The position numbers and the translations under genes are program-made. Positions 17,437 to 64,000 of a stretch of DNA of 64,000 nt are shown here, one piece after another; the first letter of the stretch is position 1, and the number at the start of each line of letters is the position of its first letter. The stretch lies in sequence record OK331996.1; one strand, written 5' to 3'. Below the pieces are notes generated by a model. The model was not told the DNA's origin, did not search any database, and worked only from the letters and a program-made list of their open reading frames with translations. Source of the DNA: Escherichia phage vB_EcoM-G157lw.

Positions 17437-17475
17437 CTGTTTACTTTTCCTCTTGACTGTGGTATAATTTTTCTA
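17430..17475 (+). promoter_or_regulatory. T4-type early promoter for regB
   Basis: actGTTTACttttcctcttgactgtggTATAAT. Confidence 0.6.
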
Positions 17476-17495: not shown

Positions 17496-17957
17496 ATGAC
17501 TATCAATACAGAAGTTTTTATCCGTCGAAATAAGCTTCGTCGTCACTTTGAGTCGGAGTTTCGTCAAATTAACAATGAGATTCGTGAGGCATCAAAAGCA
17601 GCAGGGGTCTCATCGTTTCATCTAAAATATTCTCAGCATCTTCTTGATCGTGCAATTCAACGGGAGATTGATGAGACATATGTTTTTGAATTATTCCATA
17701 AAATAAAAGATCATGTTTTAGAAGTTAATGAATTCCTGAGTATGCCTCCGCGTCCTGACATTGACGAGGATTTTATTGATGGGGTTGAATATCGTCCTGG
17801 ACGTTTAGAAATCACAGATGGAAATCTTTGGCTTGGATTTACAGTTTGTAAGCCTAATGAGAAGTTCAAAAACCCGTCACTTCAATGCAGGATGGCAATT
17901 ATCAACAGTCGTCGTTTACCAGGAAAGGCTTCTAAAGCAGTAATTAAAACTCAATGA
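17496..17957 (+). CDS. regB: RegB site-specific endoribonuclease, 153 aa
   Basis: MTINTEVFIRRNKLRRHFESEFRQINNEIREASK recalled as T4 RegB; same size. Confidence 0.85.
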   Translation: MTINTEVFIRRNKLRRHFESEFRQINNEIREASKAAGVSSFHLKYSQHLLDRAIQREIDETYVFELFHKIKDHVLEVNEFLSMPPRPDIDEDFIDGVEYRPGRLEITDGNLWLGFTVCKPNEKFKNPSLQCRMAIINSRRLPGKASKAVIKTQ

Positions 17958-17964
17958 GGTAAAC

Positions 17965-18510
17965 ATGAGAAAAGCACTACTCGCTGGTCTATTGGCCATT
18001 TCAATGATGGCACATAGCTCCGAGCATACTTTCAGTAATGTCCAACTCGATAACATGCGTTACGCGTATCAATTCGGGGAACAATTTTCTAAGGATGGAA
18101 AATATAAAACACACAAAAATATCCACAAGAGCGGATTAGGTCATATAATGGCTGCTATTTTATGGCAAGAAAGCTCTGGCGGAGTTAATTTAAAATCTAA
18201 ACCAAAGCATCACGCCTATGGAATGTTCCAAAATTATTTGCCTACTATGCGAGCAAGAGTTAAGGAACTTGGTTATAATATGACCGATGCTGAAATAAAA
18301 AGAATGTTGAATAAACGGTCCAATTCAGCTTCCTGGGCGTACATTGAACTTTCTTATTGGTTAAATATACATAAGGGCGATATAAGAAAAGCAATATCCT
18401 CTTATAATTCGGGATGGAATGTTAAAGCAGGTTCTAAATATGCTTCTGAAGTCCTAGAAAAGGCTAATTACCTTAAAAATAATAAACTTTTGGAAATAGT
18501 AAATGACTAA
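17965..18510 (+). CDS. secreted lytic-transglycosylase-like protein (vs.1 position), 181 aa
   Basis: Signal peptide; SLT-like ILWQESSGG ... YGMFQ. Confidence 0.65.
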   Translation: MRKALLAGLLAISMMAHSSEHTFSNVQLDNMRYAYQFGEQFSKDGKYKTHKNIHKSGLGHIMAAILWQESSGGVNLKSKPKHHAYGMFQNYLPTMRARVKELGYNMTDAEIKRMLNKRSNSASWAYIELSYWLNIHKGDIRKAISSYNSGWNVKAGSKYASEVLEKANYLKNNKLLEIVND

Positions 18511-18844
18511 AATTTTGGTTTTATGTATAGGATTAATTTCATTTTCTGCGTTAGCAGATACATCATATACTGAAATTAGAGAGTATGTAAACCGTACTGC
18601 AGCGGATTATTGCGGGAAAAATAAAGCATGCCAAGCTGAATTTGCGCAGAAATTAATATATGCATATAAAGACGGAGAAAGAGATAAATCAAGCAGATAC
18701 AAAAATGATACATTGTTAAAACGATATGCTAAAAAGTGGAATACCTTAGAATGTTCAGTTGCGGAGGAGAAAGATAAAGCCGCTTGTCATTCAATGGTTG
18801 ACCGTTTGGTAGATTCTTATAATCGAGGATTGAGTACTAGATGA
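18503..18844 (+). CDS. secreted protein (T4 vs position), 113 aa
   Basis: Signal peptide; position between vs.1-like gene and macro-domain gene. Confidence 0.55.
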   Translation: MTKILVLCIGLISFSALADTSYTEIREYVNRTAADYCGKNKACQAEFAQKLIYAYKDGERDKSSRYKNDTLLKRYAKKWNTLECSVAEEKDKAACHSMVDRLVDSYNRGLSTR

Positions 18845-19320
18845 TTGTAAAATATATCAAGGGCGATATTGTCGCCCTATTTCTTCAAGGTAATATTATT
18901 GCGCACGGGTGCAATTGTTTTCATACTATGGGTTCAGGTGTAGCGGGTCAATTAGCAAGAGCCTATCCCAAAATTTTAGAAATAGATAAAACCACTACTG
19001 AGTACGGTTCTCGTGATAAATTAGGCGATATGTCTATTATTTTTAAACATAAACCTAATGGTTTTGGCATATGTTATAACTTGTATACGCAATACGAACC
19101 AGGTCCTAATCTTGATTATGGTGCTTTAGTAAACTGCATGATAGAATTAAATCTACAGGCAGAAACCCTTTTGTTTAAACCAGTAATTTACATTCCACGC
19201 ATAGGTTGTGGTATTGCTGGCGGCGATTGGGATAAGGTTTCTAAATTAATCGACATGTTTACTCCTGATATTGATTTAATAGTGGTGGATTATGAAAGTA
19301 CATTACCCACATCCGTTTGA
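18841..19320 (+). CDS. macro-domain (ADP-ribose binding/processing) protein, 159 aa
   Basis: HGCNCFHTMGSGVAGQLA and IGCGIAGGDW resemble macro-domain glycine-rich motifs. Confidence 0.65.
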   Translation: MIVKYIKGDIVALFLQGNIIAHGCNCFHTMGSGVAGQLARAYPKILEIDKTTTEYGSRDKLGDMSIIFKHKPNGFGICYNLYTQYEPGPNLDYGALVNCMIELNLQAETLLFKPVIYIPRIGCGIAGGDWDKVSKLIDMFTPDIDLIVVDYESTLPTSV

Positions 19321-19504
19321 TCCTAAAAACAAAGTGGAAATTATTCGTCAATGGGAACGCATTTGCCGTACTAAATGTCCAATTAATAGTCCACATGATG
19401 TAGATAAAGACTACATTGGAACATTCGTTGAATATACCTTTATTGATAAGAAAGGTCGTAAACAACATGTAGAAGAATATTGCTTAAAGGTTACATGGTT
19501 ATGA
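19292..19504 (+). CDS. hypothetical protein, 70 aa
   Basis: Track ORF. Confidence 0.45.
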   Translation: MKVHYPHPFDPKNKVEIIRQWERICRTKCPINSPHDVDKDYIGTFVEYTFIDKKGRKQHVEEYCLKVTWL

Positions 19505-19707
19505 GCCAAACTAGTATTCTTAAAAATGCCCACTGTGAAAAGTGTAAGTGGCCTGTTGTTTTTGCTTTATGTAATGATGAAATGGCTTGTGATTTCGATT
19601 ATTGGTGCTATTGTTCTAATAAAGGATGCATCAATCATAAAGGTGAAGGATTTTATTCGGGATTTTATCCTTATCCTGATTTCGTTAAAGAAGGTAAACC
19701 AAAATGA
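19501..19707 (+). CDS. Cys-rich small protein (putative zinc binding), 68 aa
   Basis: ATGA overlap; 10 Cys in CxxC-like spacing. Confidence 0.5.
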   Translation: MSQTSILKNAHCEKCKWPVVFALCNDEMACDFDYWCYCSNKGCINHKGEGFYSGFYPYPDFVKEGKPK

Positions 19708-19880
19708 ATGATGATTTAAAATATCAATTATTACGTGAACTTGATGTTTTGATTGAACTTTCTGCACAAAAAGGATTTATAATTGGATCGGGTCAAAAAG
19801 ACCCCAACGGTCATTCAATCGTAGCGGTTATGAATCAGAAACGAGTCATTTTAAAACTTTTGGGGATTGACATACTGTGA
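19704..19880 (+). CDS. hypothetical protein, 58 aa
   Basis: ATG overlapping upstream stop; below track length cutoff. Confidence 0.4.
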   Translation: MNDDLKYQLLRELDVLIELSAQKGFIIGSGQKDPNGHSIVAVMNQKRVILKLLGIDIL

Positions 19881-20062
19881 GCCTAAGCAAAGAACAAAAA
19901 GATAAATTGTTTGAGCTTATCCATGAACTTCTAGATGAGCATGCAGAAGCAAACACCTTTTATGATGAATACGGCCCGCTATCTCCCGAACAGCAGGAAG
20001 AATTTGCTGATCGGTTTGATAAGAAAGAAAATGAATTAATAGCTTATGTGAATACGCTTTAA
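19877..20062 (+). CDS. hypothetical acidic protein, 61 aa (GTG start)
   Basis: Track ORF; GTGA overlap with upstream ORF. Confidence 0.4.
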   Translation: MSLSKEQKDKLFELIHELLDEHAEANTFYDEYGPLSPEQQEEFADRFDKKENELIAYVNTL

Positions 20063-20071
20063 GAAGGTGAT

Positions 20072-20653
20072 ATGGCGAGTTTAATTTTTACTTATGCAGC
20101 AATGAATGCTGGAAAATCTGCTTCTCTTTTGACTGCTGCACATAATTATAAAGAACGTGGAATGAGTGTATTAGTTCTTAAGCCTGCTATTGATACTCGC
20201 GATTCTGTCTGTGAAGTTGTTTCTCGCATTGGAATTAAACAGGAAGCGAATATTATTACAGATGATATGGATATTTTCGAGTTCTATAAATGGGCTGAAG
20301 CACAAAAAGATATTCATTGCGTATTTGTAGATGAAGCTCAGTTTTTAAAAACTGAACAGGTGCACCAATTAAGCCGAATTGTTGATACATATAATGTTCC
20401 TGTTATGGCTTATGGATTAAGGACTGATTTCGCTGGAAAATTGTTTGAAGGTTCTAAAGAACTTTTAGCGATTGCAGATAAACTTATTGAACTAAAGGCA
20501 GTTTGTCATTGCGGCAAAAAAGCGATTATGACAGCTCGATTAATGGAAGATGGAACACCAGTTAAAGAAGGTAATCAAATCTGTATTGGTGATGAAATTT
20601 ATGTTTCTTTGTGCAGAAAACATTGGAATGAATTAACTAAAAAGCTTGGTTAG
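20072..20653 (+). CDS. tk: thymidine kinase, 193 aa
   Basis: P-loop AMNAGKSASLL and C-terminal CxxC pairs typical of TK; matches T4 tk size and position. Confidence 0.9.
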   Translation: MASLIFTYAAMNAGKSASLLTAAHNYKERGMSVLVLKPAIDTRDSVCEVVSRIGIKQEANIITDDMDIFEFYKWAEAQKDIHCVFVDEAQFLKTEQVHQLSRIVDTYNVPVMAYGLRTDFAGKLFEGSKELLAIADKLIELKAVCHCGKKAIMTARLMEDGTPVKEGNQICIGDEIYVSLCRKHWNELTKKLG

Positions 20654-63825: not shown

Positions 63826-64000
63826 ATGGTTCAATAGACCAAACTCAATGTATATTGATGATGGTTGGGTTGAACAAGCAAATAAAGAAATGCAGAACGA
63901 GTCAGAAGAATGGATGAAATCAATGATTAGTGCTGAGAAAGAAAAGAAATTAGAACGCTCAAGCGCTTAAATTGATGAGAGACATCTATGGTGATAAATC

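Follow-up and report, generated by a model that had tools for sequence, protein, structure and literature searches.

A Poa1p-like macrodomain protein at the tk.4/adfM position of Escherichia phage vB_EcoM-G157lw and its probable role against DarT2

Between regB and tk, Escherichia phage vB_EcoM-G157lw (OK331996.1) carries a short early-region gene with two glycine-rich motifs, which raises the question of what kind of protein it encodes and from which molecule that protein would remove, or on which it would bind, ADP-ribose. The analysis covered a stretch of 64,000 nucleotides of this genome (hereafter the window). An earlier note, made from the letters of the window, had read the gene as a macro domain of the regB-to-tk early region and had suggested that it reverses or reads ADP-ribosylation, which would be relevant to the modification of host proteins by the T4-type enzymes Alt, ModA and ModB as well as to ADP-ribosylating defences of the host.

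A stand-alone macrodomain protein in the tk.4 slot

The ORF list and the sequence place a 159-aa ORF with an ATG start at 18841-19320 (+), stop codon included. The gene does lie where the earlier note had put it, between regB (17496-17957) and tk (20072-20653). Its immediate neighbours are vs upstream and tk.3 downstream, and RB14, T4 and Shigella phage A2 all have the gene string regB-vs.1-vs-tk.4-tk.3…tk in the same order as the window. The features of the locus are as follows.

18841..19320, plus strand: tk.4/adfM ortholog encoding a single-domain macrodomain protein (ORF, Pfam Macro, PHROG 335, identity to T4 and RB14, gene order, AF2, Foldseek)
18841..18844, plus strand: ATGA overlap of the tk.4 start codon with the stop codon of vs, 18503-18844 (coordinates and sequence)
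19292..19320, plus strand: 29-nt overlap of the 3' end of tk.4 with the start of tk.3, 19292-19504 (coordinates)
17440..17468, plus strand: sigma-70-like promoter match ahead of regB, TTTACT-17-TATAAT with an upstream TG (consensus match only)
18880..19330, no strand assigned: mosaic block over the body of tk.4 (sliding nucleotide identity against the T4-type phage RB14)

A Pfam search had been named in the earlier note as the check on its macro-domain call, and the lack of any profile match as the outcome that would speak against it. The search returned Macro (PF01661) at E=4.9e-8, with 33.4 bits against a gathering cut-off of 22 and with profile positions 2-117 of 118 covered. PHROG 335 ('phosphatase') matched residues 1-156 at E=2.7e-71. 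Strands and helices alternate in the AlphaFold (AF2) model (mean pLDDT 93.3, pTM 0.88), and all 50 PDB matches listed by Foldseek were macrodomains or designs built on one, the best being TARG1, BT1257, Poa1p and DarG (E 2e-10 to 4e-8, TM about 0.7-0.8). With a Pfam score above gathering and a macrodomain fold, the call holds and is far beyond chance. The family is large: 793 homologs were found in a large protein database, and tblastn with the window protein gave matches in 2,763 phage records, including phages of Klebsiella, Salmonella, Pseudomonas, Vibrio and Acinetobacter. The ORF encodes a stand-alone macrodomain protein, and its family is Poa1p-like, not DarG-like.

T4 Tk.4 (NP_049723) and the window protein are identical at 89/155 positions (57%) in an alignment free of gaps (E=1e-69), and RB14 Tk.4 also shows 57% identity over 155 aa. 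The T4 gene occupies the same slot between vs and tk.3, the proteins have 155 and 159 aa, and all family-invariant residues are common to both. The window gene is the positional ortholog of T4 tk.4, recently named adfM. Its product is longer than T4 Tk.4 by a C-terminal extension of 4 aa, and the tk.4/tk.3 overlap is only 4 nt in T4. In the T4 record (NC_000866) tk.4 is labelled 'phosphatase; contains A1pp phosphatase motif', and 'macro domain containing protein' is the label of a 99%-identical protein in Shigella phage A2. T4 Tk.4 received the name AdfM, for anti-DarT factor Macrodomain, in a 2025 preprint (bioRxiv 10.1101/2025.11.20.689424). The macrodomain call is thus correct but not new, the gene being already annotated and already tied to anti-defence; the earlier note had not linked it to the long-annotated T4 tk.4.

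The ATGA arrangement of vs and tk.4 is likewise present in RB14 and T4, and suggests translational coupling in the early gene string regB-vs.1-vs-tk.4. The match at 17440..17468 is a candidate early promoter of the co-directional string from regB to tk; sigma-70 matches in this region were no more numerous than in shuffled sequences, so the scan provides no real evidence on transcription. A hairpin at 18860-18878, picked up in a terminator scan, had an unremarkable folding z-score (-1.1) and was kept only where the encoded KGDIVAL peptide was kept; it was treated as a by-product of coding.

Within the mosaic block, nucleotide identity to RB14 falls to 37-75%, against 98-100% in the directly flanking DNA. 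At the amino-acid level the identities are 99% for regB, 100% for vs.1, 97% for vs, 57% for tk.4, 93% for tk.3 and 100% for tk. The window allele is 94% identical to the protein of JS98-type phages (Mosigvirus), in which the flanking genes reach no more than 45-74% identity to those of the window. These identities mark the allele as a cassette of Mosigvirus type in a backbone that is otherwise T4-like, with essentially only the body of tk.4 exchanged.

Active-site residues

Three segments of the protein correspond to the parts of the macrodomain that handle ADP-ribose.

18904..18945, plus strand: first ADP-ribose-binding loop, residues 22-35, HGCNCFHTMGSGVA (invariant columns, alignments)
19078..19092, plus strand: NLYTQ, residues 80-84, with N80, Y82 and Q84 invariant (profile alignments)
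19195..19230, plus strand: second glycine-rich loop (diphosphate and distal ribose), residues 119-130, PRIGCGIAGGDW (alignments)

The longer stretches HGCNCFHTMGSGVAGQLARAYP and IGCGIAGGDWDKV are residues 22-43 and 121-133. In the first loop, H22, G23, N25, C26, G33 and A35 are family-invariant. N25 has as its aligned counterparts N23 in PhiKZ gp104 and, in DarG, the Asn of 'VNTVG'; H22 aligned to H23 of yeast Poa1p, the residue mutated in PDB 6lfs. Poa1p S30 aligned to T29, a position at which 50/83 members have Thr. Alignments of 57 and 83 members showed MGSGVAG (residues 30-36), GCGIAGG (122-128) and N25, the Asn following the initial core strand, to be invariant or nearly so. The polar residues H22, N25, N80, Y82 and Q84 line the predicted active site and are strictly conserved across the 83 diverse members, and the window allele carries all the family-invariant residues.

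TARG1 (K84) and DarG (K80, in 'NFPTKK') have their catalytic lysine in the column of Q84, as found concordantly in three profile-based alignments (hmmsearch against PDB, local hmmsearch and hhalign), and Gln occupies this position in 83/83 family members. When the window protein was aligned to BT1257, TARG1, DarG and PhiKZ gp104 with MAFFT alone, the T-K motif came to lie two columns off, with compensating gaps, and the profile alignments were preferred. In the second loop, A126 occupies the position of TARG1 D125 and of Poa1p F152, the latter inferred from the F152A chain of PDB 6lfu; F152 is not conserved at A126. The lysine is important for hydrolases of the DarG/TARG1 type (PMC8120803). 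Because it is replaced by an invariant Q84, and TARG1 Asp125 by A126, the DarG/TARG1 catalytic route would not be available to the window protein. From these replacements, a mechanism mediated by water or assisted by the substrate, like that of Poa1p-type and MacroD-type macrodomains, appears more likely.

The second loop reads GIAGGDW in the window protein and GIGKGNW in T4 Tk.4. Lys127 of the T4 loop was considered as a stand-in for the missing catalytic lysine, and was rejected as not being a general feature: it is Gly in the only other alleles with T4's GIG-x-GNW loop (L012 and L013), and it is absent from the window allele.

Probable role and alternatives

The best explanation, which we hold to be probable, is that the window carries a copy of tk.4/adfM whose Poa1p-like macrodomain enzyme removes DarT2-attached ADP-ribose from phage DNA. 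By extension from the T4 ortholog, for which the data are genetics only, the enzyme would hydrolyse the bond at C1'' of ADP-ribose during infection: the host toxin DarT2 would put ADP-ribose on thymidines of single-stranded phage DNA, the phage enzyme would take it off, and replication could then continue in hosts that carry DarTG2. In a transposon screen on a DarTG2 host, tk.4 was the only T4 gene to reach significance, and a clean tk.4 knockout made T4 sensitive to DarTG2 (bioRxiv 10.1101/2025.11.20.689424, a preprint with genetic evidence only). Between the two functional suggestions of the earlier note, the one concerning host ADP-ribosylating defences matches the genetics of T4 tk.4/AdfM, while the reversal of Alt, ModA or ModB marks found no support and stays speculation. 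The macrodomain fold, both glycine-rich loops, and N25 and H22, which correspond to active-site residues of relatives already characterised, all speak for the DarT2 reading. Moreover, phage stand-alone macrodomains are capable of such chemistry: in vitro, PhiKZ gp104 clears TNTC ssDNA of the ADP-ribose that DarT2 has added, and an N23A exchange lowers this activity (PMC13309987). Against it stand the mere 57% identity of the window allele to the genetically tested T4 protein, with a different second loop, its weak similarity to DarG, and the absence from the family of a lysine on which DarG (K80) and TARG1 (K84) depend. Apart from DarG and TARG1, no macrodomain is known to cleave ADP-ribose linked to thymidine.

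An 'orphan antitoxin' origin was addressed by searching for DarT2 neighbours. With tblastn and one DarT2 query (E<=1e-3, a search that could miss divergent DarTs), no DarT2 homolog was found within 4 kb at 162 related viral and bacterial loci. Genes of NAD+ reconstitution or salvage recur near the related loci, and this pattern of neighbours also counts against the DarT2 reading.

These neighbours bear on the alternative that survives best, a possible but on balance unlikely one, namely that the protein is an Adpp-type ADPR-1''-phosphate phosphatase, or a processor of soluble ADP-ribose derivatives. It would convert the ADPR-1''-P made by RES-domain NAD+ phosphorylases (aRES, RES toxins) to ADPR, and DNA de-ADP-ribosylation would be absent or secondary. 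The closest family labels point this way (PHROG 335 'phosphatase' and the 'A1pp phosphatase motif' of the T4 record), as does Poa1p, which is among the best matches in sequence and fold and whose H23 and S30 align to H22 and T29. Adps, Namat/NAMPT or NadM-Nudix genes adjoin ~14-18 of about 160 related loci, and a DarT2 homolog adjoins none. Adpp itself, KNV71_gp137 of Vibrio phage Gary, is the ADPR-1''-phosphate phosphatase associated with NARP1 (bioRxiv 10.64898/2026.01.28.702374). The comparison with Adpp was made through gp177 of Vibrio phage Luma, a counterpart by operon position only and not the Gary sequence itself, which is 40% identical to the window protein, of similar length and of the same Poa1p-like family. 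Luma gp176-178 show the same Adps-macro-Namat arrangement; gp177 contains every family-invariant residue, has the H/N/C, N-x-Y-x-Q and GxGxAGGDW motifs in common with the window protein, and scores higher than T4 Tk.4 with the DarG model.

Several observations weigh against a phosphatase role. Adpp sits in an Adps-Adpp-Namat operon and acts together with it, whereas the window gene has vs and tk.3 as neighbours, and a search of the 64-kb window for NARP1 and NARP2 genes found no homolog of Adps, Namat, NAMPT or NadM-Nudix, nor a second macrodomain. T4-type genomes are not known to carry NARP1. In NARP1-AP the phosphatase alone is insufficient, as inactivating any one of the three genes ended the anti-aRES effect. 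Finally, DarTG2 sensitivity is the only phenotype reported for T4 tk.4, and hydrolysis of ADPR-1P does not explain it.

Because both would cleave the C1'' substituent of ADP-ribose, the phosphatase activity and the removal of DarT2 marks are not mutually exclusive. A broader proposal, doubtful but worth stating, is that T-even Tk.4-type proteins and the NARP1 Adpp form one family of lysine-independent C1'' hydrolases acting on DarT2-modified thymidine as well as on ADPR-1''-P. If this were true, one small gene would counter both DarTG2 and RES/aRES, NAD+-based defences that differ in mechanism; the substrate or toxin variant covered would be adjusted as T4-like genera swap tk.4 alleles in the manner of cassettes; and the DarG/TARG1 lysine would not be needed to free thymidine of ADP-ribose.

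Very unlikely, in our estimate, is a protein that binds ADP-ribose without catalysis, or inhibits DarT2 stoichiometrically, and would protect by sequestration of modified sites or by toxin block. The protein does lack both the catalytic lysine of DarG and TARG1 and the Asp125 of TARG1, and toxin binding is the reported mode of action of AdfA and AdfB, other anti-DarT factors. However, the strict conservation of H22, N25, N80, Y82 and Q84 in 83 members is a pattern typical of an enzyme; the Adpp of the NARP1 operon is catalytically active, and its Luma counterpart has the same invariant residues; SCO6735, another macrodomain of the TARG1 branch that lacks the catalytic pair, still hydrolyses ADP-ribosyl-glutamate; and the DarT-binding C-terminal domain of DarG has no counterpart in this single-domain protein of 159 aa.

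We give hardly any credence to an eraser or reader of the ADP-ribosylation or RNAylation marks that the phage itself sets on host proteins through Alt, ModA and ModB: T4-type phages do have three ADP-ribosyltransferases, writers and an eraser in one genome are suggestive, and the near-identical Shigella phage A2 has a ModB-like gene at a position matching the right edge of the window, but tk.4 is unlinked to modA/modB, about 45 kb away, showed up only as a conditional requirement, on DarTG2 hosts, and belongs to a family widespread in phages of many other groups, and the Alt/Mod enzymes modify arginine, a linkage cleaved by ARH/DraG-type enzymes and, to our knowledge, by no macrodomain.

Comparison with known macrodomains

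Among solved structures, the best sequence matches were Bacteroides BT1257 (PDB 2afc/2fg1; function unknown) and yeast Poa1p, an ADP-ribose-1''-phosphate phosphatase (PDB 6lfq-6lfu), at only 21-28% identity and Foldseek TM of about 0.7-0.8. BT1257 was matched at E=2e-10 with the sequence alone and 4e-19 with a profile, and Poa1p at E=9e-10 and 2.6e-14. BT1257 has the N-x-x-x-Q motif in common with the window protein and a GCGLAGGKW loop. Poa1p differs in having Phe152 where the window protein has Ala126, and Ser in place of Gln84, and its role is clearance of a tRNA-splicing by-product, not defence.

Human TARG1/OARD1 (PDB 4j5q-s) was the top Foldseek match (E=2e-10, TMt 0.84), with a profile E-value of 2.5e-17 and a gap-free alignment over residues 77-105. 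Its catalytic pair is nevertheless replaced at both positions, K84 by Q84 and D125 by A126. The DarG macrodomain (T. aquaticus and M. tuberculosis; PDB 5m31, 5m3e, 5m3i) likewise has the fold in common (Foldseek E 2-4e-8, TM about 0.74-0.78), yet in sequence the window protein matched DarG at E=3e-5 only, and its score with the NCBIfam DarG model NF048014 was 27.3 bits against a cut-off of 250. For DarG, the sequences used were those in the PDB alignments that PhiKZ gp104 had yielded; a tblastn search of plasmids for annotated DarG had returned generic 'macro domain-containing' and 'SLOG family' proteins and no DarG. The window protein also lacks the C-terminal DarT-binding domain of DarG and an adjacent darT.

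PhiKZ gp104 belongs, with DarG, to a different clade from the window protein: it matches M. tuberculosis DarG at E=9e-25, carries the FPTK lysine and scores 132.9 bits with the PADLOC DarG model, as compared with 27.3 bits for the window protein. The latter matched gp104 at E=1e-3 over 33 aa only, and has Gln84 instead of the lysine. What DarG, gp104 and the window protein have in common is the active-site Asn and a proposed role in undoing the DNA modification made by DarT2.

No new kind of system is added by these results, and their value is one of caution for workers on AdfM. T-even AdfM is no 'orphan antitoxin' of the DarG type, and the catalytic lysine of DarG and TARG1 is missing from it; it shares its family with Adpp, an ADPR-1''-P phosphatase, and it bears a name that has also been given to PhiKZ gp104 (PMC13309987), so that two non-orthologous proteins go by one name.

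Orthology to T4 tk.4 and gene neighbourhood

The ORF studied here starts with ATG and comprises 159 codons. It is accompanied by the following features:

17496-17957, regB
18503-18844, vs ('valyl-tRNA synthetase modifier', 113 aa), whose stop codon overlaps the start of the next gene (ATGA)
18841-19320, + strand, tk.4 ortholog
18860-18878, hairpin within codons 7-13 of tk.4
19292-19504, tk.3, whose start shares the final 29 nt (19292-19320) of the tk.4 ortholog
20072-20653, tk
~63960-64000 (right edge), predicted ModB-like gene starting at, or running past, the window end

Because regB and tk bracket the ORF, the earlier note placed it correctly in the regB to tk early region, which also contains an SLT-domain gene (vs.1), vs and several small ORFs, with rI.1 and rI nearby. 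The order regB-vs.1-vs-ORF-tk.3…tk is common to RB14 and T4, where the slot is occupied by tk.4, and the window protein aligns gap-free over 155 residues with Tk.4 of T4 and RB14, at 57% identity. The feature is already known: T4 has carried an annotation for years (the RefSeq entry reads "phosphatase; Tk.4; contains A1pp phosphatase motif"), the gene is annotated in near-identical genomes too, and a function has been assigned in T4. Over 3.3 kb, the region matches Tequatrovirus genomes including Aplg8 and Shigella phage A2 at 99.4% identity, and the A2 protein (99% identical) is recorded as "macro domain containing protein, IPR002589". Phages of Escherichia, Klebsiella, Salmonella, Pseudomonas, Vibrio and Acinetobacter are among the 2,763 phage records with homologs; macro domains have been reported in 41% of myoviruses (PMC9503650).

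Several side observations were made. The N-terminus of Vs (MTKILVLCIGLISFSALA/DT) resembles a cleavable Sec signal peptide, an unexpected feature given its supposed target, a cytoplasmic synthetase; in minimal medium, vs was the T4 gene depleted most strongly (HIDEN-SEQ preprint). A terminator scan flagged the GC-rich 8-bp hairpin and following T-rich tract at 18860-18878 (GGGCGATATTGTCGCCC + TATTTCTT). Its folding z-score is just -1.1, and it is kept in T4, JS98-like and L012 (a related macrodomain locus) sequences, where the KGDIVAL peptide is conserved, and missing elsewhere; it is probably a coding by-product. At the right edge of the window, a gene for a ModB-like NAD-protein ADP-ribosyltransferase is predicted to start or run off, by coordinates transferred from the near-identical phage A2.

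A macrodomain outside the DarG clade

The ORF product is a macro domain protein, as the earlier note had proposed from two motifs mapping to residues 22-43 (HGCNCFHTMGSGVAGQLARAYP) and 121-133 (IGCGIAGGDWDKV). Profile searches returned Pfam Macro (PF01661) at 33.4 bits (cut-off 22, E=4.9e-8) with nearly the full profile covered, and PHROG 335, labelled "phosphatase" (E=2.7e-71). The best solved-structure sequence matches were macrodomains without exception: Bacteroides BT1257 (2afc/2fg1, E=2e-10), yeast Poa1p (6lfu, 9e-10), Streptomyces SCO6735 (5e3b), DarG (5m3i, 3e-5) and human TARG1 (8e-3). With a profile built from 57 family sequences, these became 4e-19, 2.6e-14, 6e-16, 2e-12 and 2.5e-17, respectively. 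An AlphaFold2 model computed from the same 57-sequence alignment (pTM 0.88, mean pLDDT 93.3) matched, in Foldseek against the PDB, TARG1 (E=2e-10, TM 0.75/0.84), BT1257 and Poa1p, DarG macrodomains also being among the leading matches (E 2-4e-8, TM ~0.74-0.78). The analysis thus shows directly a macrodomain fold, loops for ADP-ribose binding, conservation of the Asn and His, and orthology to T4 tk.4. Since profile searches do hit a macro domain, the outcome that would have refuted the earlier note did not occur, and its macro-domain interpretation stands.

The resemblance to DarG is limited. The window protein scored 27.3 bits against the NCBIfam DarG model (cut-off 250), and 27.3 bits against the PADLOC DarG model, to which PhiKZ gp104 scored 132.9; it is not a member of the DarG clade. 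Moreover, three profile-based alignments (hmmsearch against the PDB, a local family-HMM hmmsearch of DarG, TARG1 and PhiKZ sequences, and hhalign against a DarG alignment) concordantly aligned N80-L-Y-T83-Q84 with DarG N-F-P-T-K and TARG1 L-I-T-K84, which places Q84 in the catalytic-lysine column. By alignment, TARG1 D125, the second catalytic residue, corresponds to A126. The catalytic lysine of DarG/TARG1 is therefore missing, and N25, N80, Y82 and Q84 are invariant across 83 family members from T4-like and unrelated viral contigs. Mutating K80 inactivates DarG, and in TARG1 the catalytic pair consists of K84 and D125 (PMC8120803).

Allele exchange at tk.4

The proteins on either side share 93-100% identity with those of T4-type RB14 (regB 99%, vs.1 100%, vs 97%, tk.3 93%, tk 100%), whereas Tk.4 reaches only 57%. 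Nucleotide identity is 100% to ~18873, falls to 37-75% at ~18880-19330 and returns to 98% from ~19341. The window Tk.4 is 94% identical to its counterpart in JS98 (Mosigvirus), but the genes flanking tk.4 in L004, a JS98-type contig, are only 45-74% identical to those of the window. The sharp divergence block, the JS98-like allele and the Tequatrovirus flanks show that a Mosigvirus-type tk.4 recombined into a Tequatrovirus backbone, the swap being almost exactly gene for gene. This first divergent block covers the tk.4 body only. The hairpin at 18860-18878 sits at the left edge of this block. A second divergent block (~19700-20070), likewise sharply bounded within DNA that is otherwise 93-100% identical, spans the two small ORFs upstream of tk, which share 54-57% identity with RB32ORF110c and tk.2; T4 tk.1 lacks a counterpart. 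The tk.4/tk.3 overlap is just 4 nt in T4 and RB14 as opposed to 29 nt here, and the window Tk.4 has four additional C-terminal residues (PTSV), where model confidence is low. In the second active-site loop, T4, the tested allele, reads GIGKGNW, whereas the window allele has the family consensus GIAGGDW. The exchange is consistent with an accessory counter-defence gene; it is also typical of T4-like plastic regions.

Substrate and relation to known systems

When a library of T4 transposon mutants was run on a host expressing DarTG2, tk.4 was the sole significant gene, and T4 with a clean tk.4 deletion became sensitive to DarTG2 (10.1101/2025.11.20.689424, November 2025 preprint). The authors named Tk.4 AdfM (anti-DarT factor Macrodomain) and proposed, given its structural similarity to M. 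tuberculosis DarG, that it removes ADP-ribose from DNA (10.1101/2025.11.20.689424). By orthology, we lean towards DarT2-made ADP-ribosyl-thymidine on single-stranded phage DNA as the relevant substrate. The window Tk.4 would be made early, probably co-translated with vs, bind C1''-attached ADP-ribose and hydrolyse the C1'' bond. With neither the Lys nor the Asp present, the reaction is expected to be of Poa1p/MacroD type and not the TARG1/DarG lysine route; catalysis should be water- or substrate-assisted, as in Poa1p/MacroD.

The main rival is a phosphatase acting on ADPR-1''-phosphate. In Vibrio phage Gary, the Poa1p-like Macro protein Adpp, encoded within phage NARP1 operons, dephosphorylates this product of RES-domain NAD+ phosphorylases, allowing NARP1 to rebuild NAD+ and overcome aRES defence (10.64898/2026.01.28.702374, January 2026 preprint). 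The window protein appears to belong to the same family as Adpp, represented here by Vibrio phage Luma gp177, which was chosen by operon position: gp177 is flanked by Adps-like and Namat-like genes (gp176-178, L003:2632-5659), the layout known from Adpp. It shares 40% identity with the window protein, has HxCNC, N-x-Y-x-Q and GCGLAGGDW motifs in common with it, and scores higher against the DarG model than T4 Tk.4 (44.5 and 37.2 bits). Among 79 viral and 80 bacterial loci with family members, Adps-like (PRPP-synthetase fold), Namat/NAMPT-like or NadM-Nudix genes adjoin the macrodomain gene in roughly 14-18. These NAD+ reconstitution or salvage genes stand beside distant members (loci L003, L028, L055, L058, L062, L063, L077, L081, L082, L087, L104, L106, L112 and L122). 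The other genes that recur nearby belong to the T4-type synteny (vs.1, tk); at bacterial loci, housekeeping neighbours recur, e.g. aminoacyl-tRNA-synthetase-like and RNA polymerase β'-like, as judged by sequence. No DarT2 homolog was detected within 4 kb of any of 162 family loci by tblastn with a single DarT2 query, a search of limited sensitivity. The published NARP1 system requires three genes together, and a search found NARP genes neither nearby nor anywhere in the 64-kb window. Both points weaken the phosphatase reading, which is rather unlikely but would be compatible with DNA de-ADP-ribosylation. A non-catalytic binder is very improbable; SCO6735, a TARG1-branch macrodomain without the K/D pair, still hydrolyses as an active enzyme. 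That the protein erases Alt/Mod marks is likewise very unlikely.

The DarG-clade mismatch, the missing lysine, the kinship with Adpp and the neighbourhoods argue that, in evolutionary terms, this is a Poa1p-like enzyme and not an orphaned DarG antitoxin, a picture compatible with the genetic results in T4.

The name AdfM was given independently by two groups to non-orthologous macrodomain proteins, T4 Tk.4 and, in a 2026 Cell Reports paper, PhiKZ gp104 (PMC13309987). In vitro, gp104 takes DarT2-added ADP-ribose off TNTC ssDNA and an N23A mutant is impaired (PMC13309987). Its match to M. tuberculosis DarG has E=9e-25, and it contains the DarG "FPTK" motif with its lysine, whereas the alignment of the window protein with gp104 is confined to 33 residues (E=1e-3). 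PhiKZ gp104 is a DarG-clade protein with the lysine and a biochemically demonstrated DNA activity, whereas T4 Tk.4 is Poa1p-like, with Gln at the lysine position and a DarTG2 role known from genetics only.
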